Positions 10,191 through 34,140 of a DNA stretch of 64,000 nucleotides are shown here, piece after piece. Source of the stretch: a virus; the IMG/VR virus record IMGVR_UViG_3300008050_000024, positions 1 to 64,000 of that record; one strand, 5' to 3'. How positions within the stretch are numbered: the stretch's first letter is position 1; each line of letters opens with the position of its first letter. The position numbers and the translations under genes were made by a program. The notes under the pieces are model-generated. The model had not been told where the DNA came from, did no database searches, and saw only the letters and a program-made list of their open reading frames with translations.

Positions 10191-10266
10191 GTCCTGGCTG
10201 ATCATCAGACACCGGGAGCCATCCCGGCATTACCCAGACCCCGGAGGGTCCAGGTTTCACACGGAC
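10191..10266 (-). ncRNA. Type II hammerhead ribozyme
   Basis: Minus strand reads GAAA, stem III (CCUGGACCC/UCCG/GGGUCUGGG), GUA cleavage triplet, stem I (AUGCCGGGA/UGGC/UCCCGGUGU), CUGAUGA; loop I UGGC can pair with downstream GCCA. Confidence 0.85.
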
Positions 10267-11494: not shown

Positions 11495-11619
11495 ATTACT
11501 TCCTCCTGCCTGGCAATTCAATCACTGTCTTTTTCGGGCTGCCTACATACTGCAATGTCGGCTTACATCCCATTTTAGCACTGGCTACAAACAACGAGGC
11601 GGCTATCAGTAGCACCTTG

Positions 11620-11683
11620 CCTCTTGTGTGTATGTTGTTCGTACCCATGTTCTAAGTATAAGGAACAAACGAAAAAGACACAA
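11620..11683 (-). promoter_or_regulatory. Promoter plus conserved 41-bp leader, copy 1
   Basis: TTGTGT-17-TATACT; 35/41 identity to 12085-12125. Confidence 0.75.
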
Positions 11684-11685
11684 GA

Positions 11686-11720
11686 GGGTTTGAAAAAAGA
11701 ATTGAACTTTTTTCAAACCC
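11686..11720 (-). terminator. Terminator-like inverted repeat
   Basis: Perfect 14-bp arms GGGTTTGAAAAAAG/CTTTTTTCAAACCC just after a stop codon. Confidence 0.6.
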
Positions 11721-11726
11721 CGAGTA

Positions 11727-12156: not shown

Positions 12157-15100
12157 TTACATTTGCCGCTGTACCCCTCTAGGCAGGGGGCCTAATGGTA
12201 CAGGTGCCTTCTCTTCTATAGCGCCTTTTGCCCAGGACTTAGCCATTCGCCTCACTCTTTCGGAAACCGGGTTTCCCATATTAGACTCTACTTCGTCAAA
12301 CGCATTTACTGCTAGAGTGACCCGCTCCTCCACCAAACGCATAGTAGCTTCCAACGTAGTCCTGCAATCCTGTGGCAAGTCTTCCCAAGTTAAATGACTG
12401 TTAATGTTTTGAAGAATTTTCAGAATGTTAGTATTGGCTTCAATTGCTCCACGCGTTGCTTCTACTACTTGTTCCAATTTATGATCGTAATCATGTGCGA
12501 CTGCTAGAATGGACCTCTGTTGATATTCGGACAAATCACTCCAACCGATCTTTCTGGATTCCGTTGGCGTATCCTCTTCTACGATCTCATTGGCTCCGTC
12601 GCTGAGAGCTGCGAATAGATTTAGAAGGGTTGATTTTTGAAACTTCCCTTCTATTGTATACCTTACTTCTTCATTCAGTAACGCCAAGTCATCTGGAGTA
12701 GGACAGCGTCCCTCATCTCCTGGCTCAGAACGCATATCCCCGATACACAGGAACAAAATTCGTTGTGCAGCTATGAAGTGGGCTATATCACCCCAGGCAA
12801 CAAGACCCTGTTCTACTCCGCCCTGCATCAGTCTCAGTAAGCCTAGCGCCTTTTCTACAGAATTGATAACGGCATACTCCTCTTCCGGATTGCCTATAGG
12901 GTACGAGGATAAGTAGCCTTTCCCTATAACTACCAGGACATCACCTAAATCCAATTCCGCCCTGTCATACTCTGATTTACGATCCTCATCTTGTTCCTTC
13001 TTAAGATTCTCCCGCTCTGCTTTAAGCTCTTCAAGAATCTTTTCGTTTTTTTCTAAATCCCTCTCATAGGAGCCCTTACCCCTTTGCCACTCCTCTATCA
13101 ATTCCGGAAACATTCGATAGATCCTGTCGCGCAAGGATTCGGGAGACTGCACAAAATACTGCAAGGCATTCACCAGCGCCTTAGAGTTACTTACAGGGGG
13201 CAAAGAAGTTGATGCGAAAACTCGCAAGGCTTCTGTCGTAAACCTCATCTGCTCTGATACATATTTTGCATTAGGATCACATTTAAAATCAGTCTGCCAC
13301 TTCGCCTGCAATGACAGGAACCGACACATAGTCCTTCCTGTAAAGAAATGCGCATACAAGGCATCAAACATCACATGCAACGAATTGCACTCCTTCTCTG
13401 AATACGGTACCGACATCCCCCCAACCTTTTTGTACCATTCTGGAATTTCCCTATTCAAGTTCTCAGTATGTCCTATAGCATAGGATGGGCTTGATATTGA
13501 TTTGCTCTCCAATTTAATATCGATATCTGGAGCCCCCTCGTCGAAAGCTCCCTTCTTCTGACACTCGTACACCAGATAATCAAGTAGTATTCGGATACGG
13601 GCAAACAGTGACATATCATTATCAAATTGATCTATGGCCACCAGTATATCTAGGGACACCTTTACTCCCTGTTGCTCCGCACACACCACTGTCATGTTTT
13701 TGATGTGCTCCTCTACAGATAACACCAGTTGAAGCGTATTGTGTCCTTTCCTGGAAGCCTCGTGTTCAATACACTCCTTGTACTCTTTTTTCAGCCACTC
13801 ACATAAAACACGCATATGGTAGGTTTCGACAACATCAAACTCAATGTCCCCGCTGGGATATAGCACACCATGCCACTTGCGGAGATCCTTTTTTAATAGT
13901 CGATCTGCCGCTGTCTCTAACTTTTCCGTCAAATTAACCGTGCCGTAGAATTGGTCAAACGCCGCTGTCTGTGCTTCATTTCGAGTAAATACAGGAGGCA
14001 AAACGAAACAAGTCATTAGCACTTCTCGAATAAGAGAAACCGCCTTGTCCTTTCCTTCAGGGCTGTTTTCCAAAATATTAAAGGCCTCTACCAACGGAGG
14101 AACGGCTACAAGAGGACCCTGTAGATGACGTAAAACCGACTCTGTGACCTGATCTACTTCATGCTGCAATAAAACAGGAGGACCCTCCGAAGGGGTGGAA
14201 TCGAGGGGCTTACGAAAAAACGCAGTAAGATAAGAAAAAAGGAAAGAATCGATATGCTTCCGGATCAACTCCTCCTGTACTTTGTTTAGCAAAACAGGGG
14301 GCTTTGCTGCAAGGGGTACGAAACGAGCGTCACAGACTCGCATAACCAACTGATCGATAGTCCAATCGCAATGACTGTGTTGTTTCAATACCGTAAGGGC
14401 AGTGCCCAGTTCCAAAGAGAATTGCGATAAATCAATTGAACTAAAATGGGTCCGGGCAACTTTCGCCAAGATACCAACCTCGTCCCGTGTGATGCCCTTT
14501 TTGTATTTTTCTACATCGGAAAAAAGCAACTCGTTAATATGTACACATAGGAGATGCTGCTGGGACTCTGTCAGGGGAACATCTGCTGGGCGATCCCTCG
14601 TGACAATTGGCGACCCTGCTTCGGTGAGTTTCACTGGGTCTTCCTCAACAAGGACTTCGCCCCCTACCGCATTTGCCCAGGACGATAACACTCGGTACAC
14701 CGCATCCCGCTCTTCAATAGACTCCCATTCGAACTCGGCCGCCTCGGTTTTGTCCCGCAATCGTTCATAGAAGTCCCGAGCTGTCTCTGGTGTTACTTTT
14801 ACGTCAAATTTAAGAGGGTTAGAATCTGATGATTCCTCCGCAGGGTTGTTACAAAGGGGCTTCATTGCCTCCTGTATTTTATCCGTGCCTTCTTCAATGG
14901 AAGATACTCCGTGGGCGCCTACCGAAACATGCCCAAGGTACCCTTTGACGGGAGTGACTGATACTTTATGAGGAAGAGAAGCTGCCTGAATGGGTAGGTT
15001 GGTTGGTTCTTTCTTTGGAGCGGGAGGGACATGAGCGGGATCGCGTTTATCAATCAAACCGTAGACCGCATCCATACATCGATCCAGGTCCTCCTGCCCT

Positions 15101-15315
15101 TGCCATTTGATCATCCCCGAATACGCCAGGCGTTCCATAGTCGCCTTTAATGTCGCGAAAGAGTCTACACCCCAGCCTAGTGCTTTCGCATAAAGCAAAG
15201 CACGTACCGCTTCATCCCTTTCTTGATTGATCATCCTCGTCATGAATAGACCACAAGCGTCTTTCGCTAGTTGGAACATATCGACGCCCTCAGGCGGTTG
15301 CTGTTTTTCTTTCAC
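12157..15315 (-). CDS. Large orphan protein (~1050 aa) with internal repeats and a coiled coil
   Basis: Probable start GTG 15315 after AAGGAG; no recognisable catalytic motif. Confidence 0.8.
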   Translation of the reverse strand: MKEKQQPPEGVDMFQLAKDACGLFMTRMINQERDEAVRALLYAKALGWGVDSFATLKATMERLAYSGMIKWQGQEDLDRCMDAVYGLIDKRDPAHVPPAPKKEPTNLPIQAASLPHKVSVTPVKGYLGHVSVGAHGVSSIEEGTDKIQEAMKPLCNNPAEESSDSNPLKFDVKVTPETARDFYERLRDKTEAAEFEWESIEERDAVYRVLSSWANAVGGEVLVEEDPVKLTEAGSPIVTRDRPADVPLTESQQHLLCVHINELLFSDVEKYKKGITRDEVGILAKVARTHFSSIDLSQFSLELGTALTVLKQHSHCDWTIDQLVMRVCDARFVPLAAKPPVLLNKVQEELIRKHIDSFLFSYLTAFFRKPLDSTPSEGPPVLLQHEVDQVTESVLRHLQGPLVAVPPLVEAFNILENSPEGKDKAVSLIREVLMTCFVLPPVFTRNEAQTAAFDQFYGTVNLTEKLETAADRLLKKDLRKWHGVLYPSGDIEFDVVETYHMRVLCEWLKKEYKECIEHEASRKGHNTLQLVLSVEEHIKNMTVVCAEQQGVKVSLDILVAIDQFDNDMSLFARIRILLDYLVYECQKKGAFDEGAPDIDIKLESKSISSPSYAIGHTENLNREIPEWYKKVGGMSVPYSEKECNSLHVMFDALYAHFFTGRTMCRFLSLQAKWQTDFKCDPNAKYVSEQMRFTTEALRVFASTSLPPVSNSKALVNALQYFVQSPESLRDRIYRMFPELIEEWQRGKGSYERDLEKNEKILEELKAERENLKKEQDEDRKSEYDRAELDLGDVLVVIGKGYLSSYPIGNPEEEYAVINSVEKALGLLRLMQGGVEQGLVAWGDIAHFIAAQRILFLCIGDMRSEPGDEGRCPTPDDLALLNEEVRYTIEGKFQKSTLLNLFAALSDGANEIVEEDTPTESRKIGWSDLSEYQQRSILAVAHDYDHKLEQVVEATRGAIEANTNILKILQNINSHLTWEDLPQDCRTTLEATMRLVEERVTLAVNAFDEVESNMGNPVSERVRRMAKSWAKGAIEEKAPVPLGPLPRGVQRQM

Positions 15316-15338
15316 GTGTTTCTCCTTTGATAAAAAGA

Positions 15339-15556
15339 AAGTCGGTGGCTGGACAATAAAAAGGAGAGAATCAGAAACCTTTCTACCGACATAAGGGGTG
15401 ATCGAGTCCCTTCCAGCCATCCGACTTAGACTGTTTTGAAATGTTTTGAAAGTGTGAGGACCGCTATTCCCGTTTTTCACCACTAACAAGATAACAGGAT
15501 ACTCCTGCAAGCAATGGTCCACCGAGTGCGAACCTTGCTATCTTCTGGCCCTCACT
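15339..15556 (-). ncRNA. Structured leader or ncRNA with two long stem-loop domains
   Basis: GUGAGGGCC/GGUCCUCAC, AAGAUAGCA/UGUUAUCUU and AAGUCGG(A)UGGCUGGA/UCCAGCCACCGACUU followed by a U-rich tract. Confidence 0.55.
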
Positions 15557-15574
15557 TCTAGAGTGTACAAGATG

Positions 15575-15781
15575 TCAAACTAGAATGTCAATGGTGTTCA
15601 AAAATACATCTTTGAACTGGGATTTAGCTCGCATGAAACGATCGTACGTCTGAGGAGCTTTGAGTGCCGGCTTGCCGGTATATACAGGAGGGGGTTCTGC
15701 AGGTAGGAGTCCCGCGTTTTGGATTCTAACGCGTTCCTTCTTGGGAGGGAGTGGTGATATGGGAGTAGGTGTGATTTTCAT
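15575..15781 (-). CDS. Small Pro-rich protein
   Basis: ATGA overlap with upstream gene. Confidence 0.45.
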   Translation of the reverse strand: MKITPTPISPLPPKKERVRIQNAGLLPAEPPPVYTGKPALKAPQTYDRFMRAKSQFKDVFLNTIDILV

Positions 15782-16047
15782 TTCATAAATATATGATCAC
15801 TGGCGTTACGTATCATCAGATGGTAATCCATGCCTTCGTGATGATGGCTAAATTCCACAGGGTGTTTGCATTGGCAGGTCCAACGAGTACGCCCTATTCG
15901 ATTATTAACGACCACACGCCCTGTTTCATACGATGCTACGAGTTGATGAACTTCAACCAGCATGGGATTGAACAAGTTCCCGCAGGAACGGCACCAGCCC
16001 GAATTCCACCAAAAACTCTCAAGCCATTTGAAAAACCATTTGAACAT
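15778..16047 (-). CDS. Small CxxC protein
   Basis: RBS AAGGAG; CRSCG, CQC. Confidence 0.6.
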   Translation of the reverse strand: MFKWFFKWLESFWWNSGWCRSCGNLFNPMLVEVHQLVASYETGRVVVNNRIGRTRWTCQCKHPVEFSHHHEGMDYHLMIRNASDHIFMK

Positions 16048-16059
16048 AGATTCTCCTTG

Positions 16060-16100
16060 TCAAAAATAAAGGGGAGCTGGTAAAAACCAACCCCCCTTTA
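16060..16100 (-). terminator. Intrinsic terminator
   Basis: UAAAGGGGGGUUGG-loop-CCAGCUCCCCUUUA followed by UUUUU; G-U pairs form only on the minus strand. Confidence 0.75.
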
Positions 16101-16883
16101 ATGCAAGTCTAGACCCAGGGAAACACACACTGAAACCCAGACCAAGCAAACGTAGCTCGACGGAAGACTTGCAAATTCCAGATCAAAAAACACAACAATG
16201 CAAGCAAGCAGGGCTACCAGTGACATATACACGCATGGCAGTGGTAGCCGTTCTATATAGTTTAAGGGGTAAACATGAAAATGTCTACCCCAAGGTAAAA
16301 ACGCCAGGACAAGAGGCGAATCATGTCGTGGCGAAGAGGATAAAGCTGTATACATCCTTGTAAGCTTTACTGGCCATGTCAGGGGCCATCGATGATTGAT
16401 GGTAGGGGAAGTGATCCCCGCCTTCCCCTACCGTAGACAGGGTGTTTGGTCACCCTACCTTCGGATGATTTGAAGTGGGAATGCTTCAGGGGCCTAATCC
16501 CTACACACTCCCACATACTCCCCGCTAGGTATTTAAGGGATCCGGGTAGAAGCCTTAGTTCGCGCACACCTAGCGCCTATGGAGAATCGCCCATGCGTGA
16601 GCGATATCGTATTTTTGGAGCATTGCGAAAGTGTGTGTATAACCAGCCACAGCTATCTCAATACTCGTTAACCTGTAATCAGTCAAGATGTCGGTCAAGT
16701 AAGGAAAAACAGGTTTATGGATTATTTTGGTGGGCTGTTCAACGCTTGCATGGGTGCAAGAAGGTCGAAAACAGCCCACGGAGTGGAGTCTTGGCACTCC
16801 ACTCTAAGAGGAGTCCTGTCTCGTGGTAGGGCTACCACGAGATATCGATATTGGTCAGGCCATCACCCCCGACCAATTCCAGA
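16060..16883 (-). ncRNA. Large (~820 nt) highly structured non-coding RNA candidate of unrecognised class
   Basis: More than a dozen stems tile the gap; no ORF with an RBS; ends in a terminator. Confidence 0.7.
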
Positions 16884-17249
16884 TTAGTTGAACAGTTTAT
16901 GGGGAACTGTGGCCTTCGTACTCGATGTGATAGAGGGAGGGGAGAAAGTAACGTCGGCGCCTTTCCGTGCCACGTTAAAGGTTGCCCCCGTGTCTACCTT
17001 AAGAGATGCCTTACCACCATCTTTCAATTTCTTAATGATCTCCTGGTGCTCAGGGTGCAGTGGAATCGAATAGGAAATGCCTACTTCAATTCGCATATAC
17101 CGCCATTCCTTTTGTTTTTCATCGAAAGGAACGACAATCTCAGACGTCACTTTGATTTTCCCCTTGGTATAAACAACGGGCGGAGGTTTAAGTCCCTCCG
17201 TGACATTGCCTCTTGCTTCCTTTAATTTGCTTATCGCCGTCTGTGTCAT
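16884..17249 (-). CDS. Hypothetical protein, possible internal head protein
   Basis: Downstream of portal; N-terminal LKE/VTE. Confidence 0.65.
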   Translation of the reverse strand: MTQTAISKLKEARGNVTEGLKPPPVVYTKGKIKVTSEIVVPFDEKQKEWRYMRIEVGISYSIPLHPEHQEIIKKLKDGGKASLKVDTGATFNVARKGADVTFSPPSITSSTKATVPHKLFN

Positions 17250-17260
17250 GTAATTTATCC

Positions 17261-17698
17261 TTATTTCATTTGCTTTTTAGCTTTGATCAAAAAAGCTTTC
17301 ATTAAATTATCAGCAATCTTATCTAAAGGCTTGCTGGGATTGATTACGATTGTACCATTGCCGTACTCTGGACCAAGCACATGGTGGTAGTACAGGAACC
17401 ATCCAAGATAGATTTCGGTCTTGGGATTTGTTCGGTTACTAATACTCCAAATCAAGTCAAAATGAGCACCCGATTTTGGGTCCAGAAAATTAAGGTAACG
17501 ATCAATCGGTCTTATCTTTCCTCGTACGACTGTATCCCCGACAACGAATCCATCGGCTCTCAATGAAGCCATAACATCTCGATGAACAAGATCCGATAAC
17601 TGTGGATTGATTTCAATCTTGATGAAGCTGTTAATGTCCCCGCCCTCATTGATGGGACTGATTGTTTCCTGTAGTCCTTCTATTAAAGTCTTTTTCAC
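17261..17698 (-). CDS. Hypothetical protein, possible internal head protein
   Basis: RBS AAGGAG; N-terminal LIE/LQE/INE. Confidence 0.65.
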   Translation of the reverse strand: MKKTLIEGLQETISPINEGGDINSFIKIEINPQLSDLVHRDVMASLRADGFVVGDTVVRGKIRPIDRYLNFLDPKSGAHFDLIWSISNRTNPKTEIYLGWFLYYHHVLGPEYGNGTIVINPSKPLDKIADNLMKAFLIKAKKQMK

Positions 17699-17731
17699 TG
17701 TTGCGTCTCCTTTTATTTTAAAGAATTAAAT

Positions 17732-18127
17732 TTACATTACCCAACGAAATACTTGCCATACAAGGACAAGCACAAGAACCGCACAGAAAATCAAATGCGA
17801 TGTCTTGGGATTATGGAAGATTTGAAATCGCATAGATTGCTTCTTCATCTTCCCCTTGGTCCAGGCTACGTACATGCCCAGGTCTTCACTCACTTTGTTT
17901 CGAACAGTTTCTTTTTCAATATAGTTGTTAAGCATTGTGGCAATGTCATGATTATTCTGAGACCGGCAATGCGTCTTCACTGACTGGATTCCCTTTATCA
18001 TCCCCTCCAGGATTTTCTGATCCTTTGGCGCCCTCATGTACCGAGCTGCTACCATCCCTACGAAGAGAACCGCGTCTACTACGAGTCCCCAGTCCACGGC
18101 CAGAATTGCTGTTATTGTTTCTTGCAT
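17732..18127 (-). CDS. Membrane protein with two TM segments
   Basis: Hydrophobic N- and C-terminal helices; RBS AAGGAG; overlaps the portal 3' end. Confidence 0.65.
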   Translation of the reverse strand: MQETITAILAVDWGLVVDAVLFVGMVAARYMRAPKDQKILEGMIKGIQSVKTHCRSQNNHDIATMLNNYIEKETVRNKVSEDLGMYVAWTKGKMKKQSMRFQIFHNPKTSHLIFCAVLVLVLVWQVFRWVM

Positions 18128-19805
18128 TTTCTCTCCTTGCGTAAAACTGTTCTGCCAATTTACCTCTAATGGTTTTGGCTTCTTTTACAGTGTCCTTCTC
18201 TGGGTCTTCTTCCAAAGCTGGATCTTCGTCGTCGTCATCCTTTGGTCCTCTGTCCTCTGGATCTTTGCCCTTTTCTTTTGCGGCTCTTTCTGTTCCCTCT
18301 TCAGCCTGTCTGAACATTTCCGCCCCTCCCTTAATAGATCCCATCAAGGATTGAACGAGTTGAATGGCTTCAGGGAGTTGAACTTCCGGTCCAAAGATTT
18401 CTGATTCCTTCAATGCTTCGACTAGCGCCATCATCCTTTCGATCATGTCCAGCTTAATATCCAGGGCTTCTATCGTCTGGATTTGCGCCGAGTCAATCGC
18501 GTTCACGAAGTCTACCTCGATGTCACGCCAGGACGCTATCTCAACGTCCGCTATACCGCAGTCTATGGCGATCAGGTGACGGATGGACATGGCCACCGCC
18601 TTCTGACCCTTCATAACCCTCTTCTGTAAGCGGGCATACTGTCGAATCCCCGATCTAGCGTTAGCATCGGTCTGACCATATATCACTTCATAGGGCACAC
18701 CGTTGGCAGTAGTGATTGACTCCCTCTTGTCCCTGATCTTCTGTAATCGATTATCAGCAGATGCATTGGTATTTAATACAATGGGGTCGATTCCCCCTCT
18801 GTTGGGGTCTCGCAAAATGACTTTGATTTGACCTGCAAGTCGAACCGCCTGTTCAATATCTTGCGGGCTCATTGACGACGTGTCTTCTACCGAACGGTTG
18901 ATTCGCTGTTCGTAGTAGTCGATCCAAACTTGTTGTTTCTTTAAATCAAGTCCAGCAGGGGCGTCAACATTGACAAGGGAGTTTCTGTTCAGGTCCGCCA
19001 TTTCCTTAGCGACATCGACAATCTCTAAACTCATCAAATCTCGGATCTGAGGAAGGAGTGTCGAAAACATGGGACGGCCGGACCGTAGGTGATAAGGCAC
19101 CCGGGCCATGCCCATGTCGTTCCCTATCATGATCTTTCGTATACTAGTTGAAATTGTCCAAAACTCGGTAGGTTCCTTGATGACAATTTCGTTACCCCTA
19201 TCTTCCAATACAATAGAGGGTAATTTCTTCCGGTGAACCGACACAACCGATAGGGGTTGTAATGTATCTAAAATATCAATCACACCCTCTTTAGGATCAG
19301 TAACGACTTTCAATGAATAGTCACCCCAGAATAGAGCTTCAGGCACTATGTCTGCAACAATCTCTTCCAAGTCGAAAAGCTCCAACAGGCGCTTGATTCT
19401 CTTTTCAATTTTTTGTTGGTTTTTTGCCCCCTCTTTTACCCTAATAGAAAATATCTCATTCGTGATGGGATCTGGGGAGAGCATTTCATCAGACAGTGTA
19501 TGTACGATTTCGTCGACCAAATAATAGTCCTGGTATGAATCCAGGGCTAGATAAAGTCTTCGCAATGACGCATACGTTTCGTACACCTTCATCGCCATCG
19601 CCGATTCGATTTCGTTAAATCGACTAGACCGGCGTAAATTTGTTTCAAGCGTCTTTAATTCAAGAGCTTCTCTCTCTGCGGTCTGTTCTTTTGTTTCCTT
19701 GTCTTTTTTCTTTACTTCGGGATGTTCGAGTTCGTCATCCCTTCGTACTAACTCGCCTACCGCTCGTCTCCATCTCATTGGGTTTAATGCTGAAAACCAA
19801 CTCAT
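17952..19805 (-). CDS. Portal protein (T4 gp20-like)
   Basis: Follows terL; size; motifs FWGD and GRPMF; acidic low-complexity tail. Confidence 0.75.
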   Translation of the reverse strand: MSWFSALNPMRWRRAVGELVRRDDELEHPEVKKKDKETKEQTAEREALELKTLETNLRRSSRFNEIESAMAMKVYETYASLRRLYLALDSYQDYYLVDEIVHTLSDEMLSPDPITNEIFSIRVKEGAKNQQKIEKRIKRLLELFDLEEIVADIVPEALFWGDYSLKVVTDPKEGVIDILDTLQPLSVVSVHRKKLPSIVLEDRGNEIVIKEPTEFWTISTSIRKIMIGNDMGMARVPYHLRSGRPMFSTLLPQIRDLMSLEIVDVAKEMADLNRNSLVNVDAPAGLDLKKQQVWIDYYEQRINRSVEDTSSMSPQDIEQAVRLAGQIKVILRDPNRGGIDPIVLNTNASADNRLQKIRDKRESITTANGVPYEVIYGQTDANARSGIRQYARLQKRVMKGQKAVAMSIRHLIAIDCGIADVEIASWRDIEVDFVNAIDSAQIQTIEALDIKLDMIERMMALVEALKESEIFGPEVQLPEAIQLVQSLMGSIKGGAEMFRQAEEGTERAAKEKGKDPEDRGPKDDDDEDPALEEDPEKDTVKEAKTIRGKLAEQFYARRENARNNNSNSGRGLGTRSRRGSLRRDGSSSVHEGAKGSENPGGDDKGNPVSEDALPVSE

Positions 19806-21673
19806 CTAAATCCTCTCCTCCACCCTTTGCGTTCGAACAATGAGGGTGACGTTTCATTTTTTAGTGCTTCTTCCATTTGTTTGGTAAGGTCGTCTGCGGT
19901 ATTGTCTGGTAGTAAGTTCAACTTAGAACACATATAAGTGCTCCCCGCACAAGCATCCGAACCGTCTTTACTGCCTTTTGGAGGGTGATCGAATTTCTTA
20001 CCCACATCCCTCAATTCTTTGAATTCCTTTTTCAGTATAGCACTCTTTGGTCCCCTCCACCTTTCCTCTACAATCGACTGGGCAATACCCTGATACGCAT
20101 GCTTGTGTTTATCGAGTGAAAGCTCCTCAGTCTTAAACCCGGCTTTCATACATCTTTGGAGGAAATCGACTGATTGGTATCCGTCGGCTGATATGCAAGA
20201 TATTGTCATACCTAAATCTCGAAGTTTAACCACGAAATTGAATATCTTATACAATGGGATTTGATCGCCTTTAAGGGCTTCTAGGAAAAGACAAAACGGT
20301 GTAGATATCAGTGACCCGGCTGCTTCTTCGTAGGAACCTTTCGAAGCATTGAACCGACTTACTTTCTTAGCTCCTACACCTACCGATGCCGCTAGAGCTG
20401 CTCTGTCTGTCGTTTTTGCAAAGTCACAGTGAATACAGTAACTACCCTCCATCGACTTTATCATCGTTATGAGTAGACTGAGGTTAACGAAATCGACTAT
20501 TTCTTCATCTCCCATCACAGGGATTCGAATTACTTCGACCGTCGTTATGGGTTCGATGACGAGGGATTTCGTAAGGGCCTCTACCTTTCGAATTAGCTTC
20601 GACTGGCCCCTTGTACTCCTACCGGCAATCTCCTTCAACGCTTGGTGTATATCTTCGACGAATTCGTTGTAGTACTCAATCGGTACTTCTAAGATGTCTG
20701 CAGCGTCTAATAATGCCAGTTGACCCTCATCCTCTACAATGAAAGGATCTGTATTTTCGTTTCCTTTAAATACTAGGAAAACCTCGTCGGTGTGTTCCTC
20801 TGGTTTTGCTTCCCAAATGGACATATCGACGACGTAGGTCTGGGGATCGTTGCCGGCGGCGTCTACCCTCATGTCTAGGAAGTCTGCTTCAGTGTTTCGA
20901 CTAGACATTAACCACAAATGGCCGGGGACTGGGTTGCCCTTCTTCATGAACCTACTTTTCATTCTTCGTCTTAGGGCTAAATAATTGATCATTACCTGAT
21001 CAGTCACAAACCCTCCGAAGTTCGATTCATCTATCAGAGCGGCGAATATGGCTCGTCCTATACCGTGTCCAGCCCTCGATCCAATCTGTATGTCAATACT
21101 TTTTGGTAGAAGAGGTCGTTTCCCCTTGTGTCCCTTATACTGCTTCTTGGCTAAACCCATATGGTGCTGGAAGAAAGGACTTTCGAGGAGAATGTACTGG
21201 AGCTGGCTCCACGTGACGTCTTCGGCTGTGTCCAAGTTCAAGGAAAACAGTGCGAATGTCAGTATAGTGCTTTCAATCAACCCATACTTGTATTGCGGCT
21301 GGGAAAGATGAAGCATTTTGCACAAGTCATATGCAATACCGACGACAGCGAATGTCGTCTTACCAGTTCCAATGGCACCCGTTAATATGATTTCGGTAAA
21401 GGGTGAAAAGAAAGGGTCTGGAAACAGTTGAATTGCATGCTGTCTCCATACGTCCCACAATGCCTGCTGGCGTCTGACTAGTACCCCGAACTCATCTTGT
21501 ATATAGTCTTGAGTGAAAGGGTCTCTTTCATACCGTCCATATATGTTACCTAAGTAATAAGGATCATCTAGGAAGGTAATGACGTCTGGTGGGGCTTTGT
21601 CGTACCCCTGCTGGCTGGCATACAATGCGTATACCGCCTCGATGGGCGTATTCTCGATAAGGGCTGTCGTCAT
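19802..21673 (-). CDS. terL: Terminase large subunit
   Basis: Walker A TGAIGTGKT, Walker B LIDE, nuclease motifs HCDFA, SADGYQS, SKDGSDA. Confidence 0.92.
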   Translation of the reverse strand: MTTALIENTPIEAVYALYASQQGYDKAPPDVITFLDDPYYLGNIYGRYERDPFTQDYIQDEFGVLVRRQQALWDVWRQHAIQLFPDPFFSPFTEIILTGAIGTGKTTFAVVGIAYDLCKMLHLSQPQYKYGLIESTILTFALFSLNLDTAEDVTWSQLQYILLESPFFQHHMGLAKKQYKGHKGKRPLLPKSIDIQIGSRAGHGIGRAIFAALIDESNFGGFVTDQVMINYLALRRRMKSRFMKKGNPVPGHLWLMSSRNTEADFLDMRVDAAGNDPQTYVVDMSIWEAKPEEHTDEVFLVFKGNENTDPFIVEDEGQLALLDAADILEVPIEYYNEFVEDIHQALKEIAGRSTRGQSKLIRKVEALTKSLVIEPITTVEVIRIPVMGDEEIVDFVNLSLLITMIKSMEGSYCIHCDFAKTTDRAALAASVGVGAKKVSRFNASKGSYEEAAGSLISTPFCLFLEALKGDQIPLYKIFNFVVKLRDLGMTISCISADGYQSVDFLQRCMKAGFKTEELSLDKHKHAYQGIAQSIVEERWRGPKSAILKKEFKELRDVGKKFDHPPKGSKDGSDACAGSTYMCSKLNLLPDNTADDLTKQMEEALKNETSPSLFERKGWRRGFR

Positions 21674-32604: not shown

Positions 32605-32832
32605 CAAGGACAATATGTACTAAATTGCCAAACTAAGGGACTCCCGTAGGCCATGGGAGTGGCAAAGGCCGGGAAGGAAGCTACCCAAAGCTTCTCTGAT
32701 ATTCTTTCCGGCCCTCCCTTTTGTACTAACCGAAAATATCAGGGGTTACATTGAAACAGTTTCAAAAAATCAGCACAGTTTTGAGTTGCTCATTTGAGTT
32801 TCGTTGTTCCCTTCGCAGGAGTTTATGCAGCA

Positions 32833-34140
32833 ATGGCAGATGACAATCATGGAATTGAATTAGTAAACGCAGACCAAAAGCTATTTCATATAGTAGACCA
32901 AGATCTTACCGATTTATGGTTGCCGTTAATTGGACCCACCGCATACACGGTATGGAACGTATTGAAACGCTTTACCAATACACTGGAACGAGGAACGGCC
33001 TTCCCTGTAGTGACCCAAAGGCATTGGGCAGAACGAATAGGGATAAGCCAGAATACGTTTAATACAGCGATCAACGTGCTAGAGAAACACCGTCTAGTCA
33101 AAACAATAAAGAAAAAGGGAAACACCCGTCAACTCAAGTACGCGGTACTCAGTGTGCCTGCTATTTTACCCGATCACCTAAAAAAGAATAGCAAACCATA
33201 TTCAAAAAGCAATCCTTTCATGCACCCTGTGTTAGAAGGCCGAAGCCGACTCTTTGTAAAGCAAAAAATAAGCTTTACACCAACGCAGGATAAACAGGCA
33301 ATAGATATCGCTCAACAACGGGAATCCCAAAATTTGGGAATCCCAGAAATAGACGAGTTACAAGAAAAAGACAGTTTAATGGGATTCCCAAAAATTGGGA
33401 ATCCAAATTCCCAAAATTTGGGAATCCAAATTCCCAAAAATTGTGAATCCTTAGTAGAGGGTACTATAGTACCCCCTACGGTAAAAGAAAGTATAAAAGA
33501 TAGTAATTTAAAAAACAGTGGTGTGACCTGCGTTCACACCAGTGATATTTTAGAAGATGAGGTTCCTTCTACCCCGAATGGAATTGTTAGGACGAATCAA
33601 CCAATACCACAATCCCATCAAGTAAAATCAGACCATGAGAAACTGGTTGACTGGTTTGATAACAACAGAATAACATCCCATCCAAATCTGGTTAAGCCGG
33701 GAGCACTTACCCCATCAAGGAAAAAGAATAGCCTGGATGAGATAGACAGACTGATCAGGATTGACGGATTCGACTTTGAAACCGAAATCAAACCAACCAT
33801 TGAATGGGCAGTAACCGATCCATTCTGGGATAGCAATTTGTTGGCGCTTACTCGTTTGCGGAACATTGGAAGCAATGGTCAATCTAAGTTTTTGAATATG
33901 CACAGATCCAGAACAGCTCAACCGACTGCCGGATCATCAGCTCCCACGTTTGAGGCTAAACTGAGCAAAATCAAACATCCCTACTATTCGCCGCAAGAGA
34001 TGGCGAAAAAGACACCAACCGAAATAAGGGATTTGCAAGGAACACACTACGACAAGAAGACAGGCGAGTTTTGGGAATACGATCAACAGGGAAACGAACT
34101 TCAGCATCGATGGTTAAGAGATGAGGAGGAAACAGCATGA
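32833..34140 (+). CDS. Replication initiator (lambda O/DnaD-like N-terminal wHTH)
   Basis: LWLPLIGPTAY..W, HTH WAERIGISQNTF; internal iterons; followed by a DnaC-like ATPase; start may extend to 32794. Confidence 0.8.
   Translation: MADDNHGIELVNADQKLFHIVDQDLTDLWLPLIGPTAYTVWNVLKRFTNTLERGTAFPVVTQRHWAERIGISQNTFNTAINVLEKHRLVKTIKKKGNTRQLKYAVLSVPAILPDHLKKNSKPYSKSNPFMHPVLEGRSRLFVKQKISFTPTQDKQAIDIAQQRESQNLGIPEIDELQEKDSLMGFPKIGNPNSQNLGIQIPKNCESLVEGTIVPPTVKESIKDSNLKNSGVTCVHTSDILEDEVPSTPNGIVRTNQPIPQSHQVKSDHEKLVDWFDNNRITSHPNLVKPGALTPSRKKNSLDEIDRLIRIDGFDFETEIKPTIEWAVTDPFWDSNLLALTRLRNIGSNGQSKFLNMHRSRTAQPTAGSSAPTFEAKLSKIKHPYYSPQEMAKKTPTEIRDLQGTHYDKKTGEFWEYDQQGNELQHRWLRDEEETA
33325..33450. repeat. Four iterons, putative replication origin
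   Basis: (T)TCCCAAAA(T/A)TTG(G/T)GAATCC at 33325, 33385, 33408 and 33431 (23-bp period for the last three), then a palindrome and an AT-rich tract. Confidence 0.85.

Follow-up and report, generated by a model that had tools for sequence, protein, structure and literature searches.

The minus strand of an uncultured marine phage, IMGVR_UViG_3300008050_000024, carries the genes from position 1 to ~22.25 kb, and among them lies a gene-free stretch of 836 nt (16048-16883) downstream of the terminase and portal genes. It is the largest of the genome, all other gaps being ≤480 nt, and the question that it raises is whether it serves as an RNA in its own right, as the untranslated tail of the message before it or as a DNA site. 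The full record has 103,868 nt (completeness estimate 94%), the window analysed here is its first 64 kb, and the phage is present in several marine metagenomes. Overall, we regard the element within this gap as a well-bounded, strand-specific structured RNA candidate with no known relatives.

A gene-free gap downstream of the portal gene

In transcription order, the minus-strand block reads 192-aa protein, large terminase, portal, three small orphan genes, gap, 89-aa ORF, 68-aa ORF and 1121-aa orphan, and the gap follows the portal gene at a distance of ~1.1 kb and the terminase gene at ~2.9 kb. The genes that define the setting are:

19802-21673 (-): large terminase (TerL), 623 aa, 34% identical over 95% of its length to the annotated TerL of Rhizobium phages, with a weak PHROG match
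17952-19805 (-): portal, T4 gp20-type (PF07230), 27% identical to annotated portals
16884-17249 (-): upstream gene, 121 aa, orphan, with a coding-like codon score (0.21); its stop codon marks where the element begins on the 5′ side
15778-16058 (-): downstream gene, 89 aa, with RBS AAGGAG (16058-16053), which starts 8 nt past the terminator stem, and ATG (16047-16045)

That the largest gene-free gap of the genome is non-coding, as originally predicted, is borne out by stops in every frame (9-15 per frame on both strands, of all three kinds), by per-codon scores of -0.14 to +0.11 for the ORFs within it versus 0.17-0.22 for the flanking genes, and by a PHROG search with the gap ORFs that returned no match. 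A coding gene read through a reassigned stop codon was also considered and rejected, no frame being open under any single stop-codon reassignment. G+C content is 0.49-0.52 in the gap versus 0.39-0.46 in the flanks. A repeat or mobile-element family was likewise rejected: the gap sequence is unique within the genome, and no repeated module family is found in either the gap or the genome. Contigs from four independent marine runs are identical, with zero variants, over the covered parts of the gap (16332-16586 is covered partially and 16870-17078 not at all, and the uncovered parts carry no meaning). Because these independent contigs reproduce the covered parts without difference, the gap is not an assembly artefact.

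The flanking proteins are largely orphans. The 121-aa neighbour, searched against 5.8 billion proteins, matched only itself, as did the portal and the 1121-aa neighbour in protein searches, and ESM Atlas look-ups with the 121-aa and 1121-aa proteins gave no usable lead. The 89-aa ORF (15778-16047, -) has a non-coding-like codon score (-0.03) despite its good RBS; its product is rich in Trp, Cys and His (CxxC ... CxC ... HHH), which could make it a small zinc protein, if the ORF is a gene at all.

Hairpins, folding strength and the strand that is probably read

All 12 stems originally described in the gap are present where they had been placed. An inverted-repeat search recovered 7-8 of the 12 as perfect or near-perfect repeats, and the others were found in the MFE fold or by direct reading of the sequence, as for stem 16670-76/16709-15 (AACCTGT/ACAGGTT). 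Perfect inverted repeats of at least 9 bp number five in the 836 nt versus 0.36 per kb elsewhere, a 17-fold higher density (Poisson p 1.6e-5). Folding of the whole gap gives -333.4 kcal/mol on the minus strand (z -8.81 versus shuffles) and -299.5 kcal/mol on the plus strand (z -6.02), and the signal is spread over the element, with z scores of -7.5, -3.9 and -5.5 for the minus-strand thirds and 0/200 shuffles as good in each. Across the 104-kb genome, smoothed local folding ranks the gap among the two most structured ~660-nt stretches, the other being the iteron origin described below. MFE and centroid folds concur on ~17 local hairpins, most stems being of 9-16 bp, with two thirds of the bases inside them. 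From the 5′ to the 3′ end of the minus strand, the predicted parts are:

16060-16883 (-): whole candidate RNA element, ~824 nt, bounded by the stop codon of the upstream gene and the end of the U-run that closes the terminator
16730-16877 (-): 5′ cluster of four tightly packed hairpins, in the third with z -7.5
16877-16850 (-): hairpin of the 5′ cluster, 10 bp
16842-16819 (-): hairpin of the 5′ cluster, 10 bp, near-perfect palindrome
16804-16781 (-): hairpin of the 5′ cluster, 9 bp
16779-16730 (-): hairpin of the 5′ cluster, 20 bp, two-tier
16667-16729 (-): A/U-rich, weakly structured linker, containing the 7-bp stem 16670-76/16709-15, which the centroid keeps
16212-16666 (-): central run of ~11 hairpins, including 16575-16523, 16514-16475, 16460-16435, 16432-16401 (11 bp, perfect), 16370-16340, 16333-16302, 16291-16266 and 16249-16212
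16102-16173 (-): 3′ domain, with a 16-bp hairpin (16148-16102) or a 9-bp perfect stem (16102-10/16165-73) as alternative pairings
16060-16100 (-): intrinsic terminator, stem 16100-16067 of 15 bp (7 G-C) with a UUUU loop, followed by UUUUUG

For the 3′ domain, the MFE fold of the whole gap favours 16148-16128/16119-16102, and the fold of its third retains the closing stem 16102-10/16165-73. The idea of a single large "ornate" fold fares less well than its constituent stems. When the pair span is limited to 80 nt, -307.6 of the -333.4 kcal/mol are retained (92%), and the gain from long-range pairing, -25.8 kcal/mol, is only marginal next to that of random module reorderings (-19.5 ± 3.1 kcal/mol; 4/60 as extreme). 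No GNRA tetraloop, pseudoknot or multi-stem junction of the kind typical of ornate RNAs was recognised in the predicted fold. Because most of the energy is local and the long-range gain marginal, the folds, which bear on secondary structure, support a hairpin chain and do not support an "ornate" global fold; the modelled architecture resembles a string of ~17 hairpins more than a single intricate structure.

Since reordering of the modules costs no predicted stability, one may ask whether the gap holds several separate small RNAs side by side, or what is left of lost cassettes, each with a hairpin of its own. The location within a variable, orphan-rich region and a weak promoter-like site at 16287-16259 (-) would fit such a composite. 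Promoter-like sites in the gap are, however, no commoner than in shuffles, there is a single terminator-like end with a U-run, and the modules do not form a repeated family in the gap or the genome, all of which make a composite origin improbable.

Wobble pairs, which had been noted to favour the minus strand, do so in every comparison that we made. The folds contain 28 G-U pairs on the minus strand versus 14 on the plus strand. With G-U pairs forbidden, the two strands fold equally well (-277.5 and -278.2 kcal/mol), and permitting them adds 56 kcal/mol of stability on the minus strand versus 21 kcal/mol on the plus strand, the minus-strand folding advantage being 34 kcal/mol. Among single transition mismatches within the helices of the G-U-blind fold, the minus strand shows 9 G.U and 0 A.C (binomial p 0.004), and the plus strand mirrors this with 8 A.C to 1 G.U. 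Because a G.U/A.C asymmetry of this kind is as predicted for RNA, selection would have acted on a minus-strand RNA and not on duplex DNA. The structure is most likely strand-specific and acts at the RNA level, the minus strand being the one that is read; this strand, assigned from the wobble asymmetry alone, is also the sense strand of both flanking genes.

The same asymmetry bears on the possibility of a DNA-level element, such as a pac site, a secondary origin or hairpins formed in single-stranded DNA during replication or recombination. Many of the stems are perfect palindromes that could also form in DNA, the plus strand folds too (z -6.0), and the gap lies a short distance downstream of portal and terminase. 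Yet neither the 9:0 ratio nor the minus-strand advantage of 34 kcal/mol is expected for duplex DNA sites, and the gap contains no iterons or direct repeats. The pac sites of P22, SPP1 and P1 are located in or beside the small terminase gene, upstream of TerL, so that the position of the gap also speaks against such a site. A classical iteron origin sits elsewhere (33317-33450), and we consider a DNA-level role very improbable.

A palindromic iteron of ~23 nt (GGAATCCCAAAATTTGGGAATCC) occurs at least four times at 33317-33450, within an ORF of 448 aa (32794-34140, +) that is coding-like and has a weak HTH match. This arrangement resembles a replication origin of the lambda-O style, contained in the gene of its own initiator, and it is the only other region of the genome as rich in inverted repeats as the 16-kb gap. 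Because these palindromic iterons sit in an initiator-like gene, the gap is unlikely to be the replication origin.

Terminator, transcription and a possible role in cis or in trans

The 3′ end of the element had been described as a terminator, and it has the form of an intrinsic (Rho-independent) one, a 15-bp stem directly before a U-run (TTTTTG in the DNA). It is strong and one-directional, the plus strand having no T-run after the stem, and within the gap a U-run is found only after this last hairpin. At the 5′ end of the element no sigma-70-like promoter was found, and searches for T4-type late promoters and for a shared upstream motif were also negative. In the absence of a sigma-70-like promoter ahead of the element, an RNA would most simply arise by read-through from the terminase-portal block. 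Co-transcription with this block, as originally proposed, is also the simplest reading of an element bounded by a stop codon and a terminator. The public runs listed as containing this stretch include no RNA run.

We would explain the gap as an RNA-level element that shares the minus-strand sense of its neighbours. It most likely forms the 3′ end of a transcript that carries terminase, portal and three small genes, with transcription stopped, at least partly, by the intrinsic terminator (16100-16060). The product would be an untranslated RNA of ~820 nt with ~17 stable hairpins, whose dense folding would allow it to survive RNA decay and to accumulate as a stable 3′-end-derived non-coding RNA acting in trans on a partner. 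Such an RNA would be an accessory (cargo), placed where the conserved packaging genes end and a block of orphan, variable genes begins. Transcription, processing, stability and any trans function are what we infer here, and we hold the reading of a stable, trans-acting cargo RNA derived from the 3′ end of the terminase-portal message with confidence and doubt in about equal parts.

Its main rival is a cis-acting stabiliser or insulator. The gap would then be purely a 3′ untranslated region whose hairpins block 3′-to-5′ exonucleases and, with the terminator, insulate or attenuate expression between the terminase-portal genes and the orphan genes downstream, with no free functional RNA. The boundaries, a stop codon on one side and a terminator 8 nt short of the next RBS on the other, suit this role, as does the fold, essentially a chain of independent hairpins; the other structured intergenic stretches on the sense strand of this phage, together with a probable hammerhead, suggest extensive mRNA processing. 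Hairpins that stabilise phage mRNAs, such as the RNase III sites of T7 and the 3′ hairpins of T4, comprise one or two hairpins of 30-60 nt. The element resembles these intercistronic and 3′-end structures in presenting sense-strand hairpins between genes, followed by a terminator, but differs from them in its ~17 hairpins over 0.8 kb. One or two hairpins suffice to stabilise a 3′ end, and a string of this length would be costly in a genome as tightly packed as this one (other gaps ≤480 nt), and the restriction of the U-run to the last hairpin also argues against it. On this balance, a purely cis-acting region is a real if tentative possibility. The hairpin-chain fold itself counts against the cargo-RNA reading, given that a hairpin string after a gene could serve purely in cis.

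A more ambitious version of the trans-acting RNA would make the element the first representative of a new family, namely large phage RNAs (~0.8 kb) that adopt a defined higher-order architecture and perform a task of their own. It might, for example, form an RNA-only assembly in the manner of GOLLD and ROOL, or serve as a decoy whose many hairpins titrate a host RNA-binding factor of defence or decay in late infection. We consider this doubtful.

Known large RNAs and the search for relatives

A covariance-model search of Rfam, which had been proposed as the check on novelty, matched no family. At the gathering score Rfam 15 gave no match in the whole window, and at E up to 10 just two chance-level matches in 15500-17400; GOLLD, ROOL, OLE, pRNA, RNase P, tmRNA, introns and known ribozymes were not among the matches. 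The earlier remark that the gap lacks the hallmarks of tRNA, tmRNA, RNase P and group I or II introns agrees with this search and, for tRNA and tmRNA, with ARAGORN, which reported neither, the tRNA count being 0 both in the window and in the whole 104-kb genome. A group I or group II intron was considered and set aside, as Rfam has no match and the downstream ORF has its own RBS and ATG past the terminator.

GOLLD and ROOL are large ornate RNAs common in phages and prophages. The element resembles them in size class (0.6-0.8 kb), in being phage-borne apparent cargo, in being non-coding and in a G+C content above that of its surroundings, and neither the GOLLD (RF01998) nor the ROOL (RF03087) covariance model matched it, at the gathering score in the whole window or at E ≤10 in 15500-17400. 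GOLLD frequently adjoins tRNA genes, whereas the present phage has none nearby or anywhere in its genome. GOLLD and ROOL have multi-stem junctions and pseudoknots, unlike the predicted chain of simple hairpins described here, and form RNA-only multimers (PMC12286853).

On the likenesses that we can list, the nearest literature analogue in kind is an ~800-nt ORF-less transcript of the Vibrio phage ICP1, produced between gp139 and gp140 and the most abundant phage transcript (PMC7567579). Both phages are aquatic, have similar genome sizes, lack tRNAs and contain a gap of ~1 kb without genes, located on the sense strand of a gene block. ICP1 is a lytic phage with a demonstrated transcript, whereas the element presented here is known from sequence alone. 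The two gaps share no similarity by nhmmer (E > 10) or in a blastn comparison with deposited phages, and that of ICP1 is weakly structured (z -1.9, versus -8.8 for the element).

The position beside terminase and portal had also led to the suggestion of an association with virions or their assembly, that is, of a packaging or prohead RNA like the pRNA of phi29 that would bind the portal and form part of the motor or the virion. Both would be phage RNAs proposed to be linked with DNA packaging, and it is position downstream of the terminase and portal genes, and only this, that speaks for such a role. The pRNA of phi29, of ~120-174 nt and encoded at the genome end, has a small phi29-type ATPase as its partner and goes with protein-primed genomes. 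The element is five times longer, and its partner here would be a classical large terminase instead of a small ATPase. Phages with a classical TerL and a T4-type portal motor package their DNA without RNA, and the present phage is of this kind, with a classical TerL of full size and a portal of the T4 gp20 type. The pRNA model (RF00044) was unmatched at the gathering score in the whole window and at E up to 10 in 15500-17400. The nearest relative has the same TerL and portal and lacks the element in the 86% of its genome that was compared. A packaging RNA is, in our judgement, hardly credible.

That relative is the contig IMGVR_UViG_3300025133_000072, the one distant contig returned when viral, metagenome and genome collections were scanned for related loci; the queries were the 121-aa neighbour, the portal and two of its relatives, and alignments of portal and of TerL. 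The nearest relatives of the portal are 47%, 37% and 38% identical, and only the first was placed on a contig. The contig shares TerL and portal only (portal 45-47% identical), the gap sits exactly where this homology stops, nothing after the portal being shared, and blastn, tblastx and nhmmer found no similarity between contig and gap. No comparable large structured non-coding stretch is present in the 86% of its genome that was compared, which counts against the cargo-RNA reading. Distant-mode blastn against 50,697 phage records gave no match to the gap, and exact-pattern scans with four gap segments gave none in viral and genome collections. The same scan of metagenomes gave 7 matches, all unrelated G-rich terminator hairpins: seven unrelated contigs each carry the stem GGTAGGGGAAG/CTTCCCCTACC as an isolated hairpin, the flanks showing no similarity, and these look like G-rich, terminator-like hairpins of independent origin and not relatives. 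The element is, judged by these searches, a singleton, with no relative in the collections searched and no known RNA family matched.

In the Rhizobium phage RHph_TM21B, a distant cultured relative, the portal gene is followed by scaffold/protease and major capsid genes. In the present phage, orphan genes and the RNA gap come after the portal (12157-17951, -), and the head module is split there. A site at which conservation with the relative ends and the portal-protease-capsid order is interrupted by orphans is typical of an accessory cargo slot.

Large structured RNAs borne by phages (GOLLD, ROOL, the ICP1 transcript) are abundant, and we know of no function for any of them. Each new, unrelated example enlarges the set that is open to comparison and testing. 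The present candidate is unusually clean: its limits are set by a stop codon and a terminator, its folding signal is very strong and its wobble signature is strand-specific. It is also short enough for in vitro transcription followed by chemical probing or cryo-EM, which need no phage culture. What weakens it is its status as a singleton, drawn from a marine phage that has not been cultured, and its simple beads-on-a-string fold may mean a modest role in cis.

Because other structured RNAs on the sense strand are found in the same transcription block, RNA-level features appear to be a habit of this phage. Between two minus-strand genes, 10192-10262 (-) matches Hammerhead_II (RF02276) with 27.2 bits, under the gathering score of 37 (E 0.0098 in a 2.4-kb search). 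A 205-nt intergenic element at 11522-11726 (-), with z -6.3 (200 shuffles) and no Rfam match at E below 1, consists of a 15-bp terminator-like hairpin and then a closed ~150-nt domain. Ahead of the 1121-aa orphan, 15316-15574 (-) is moderately structured, with z -3.5 on the minus and -2.7 on the plus strand (15 shuffles).
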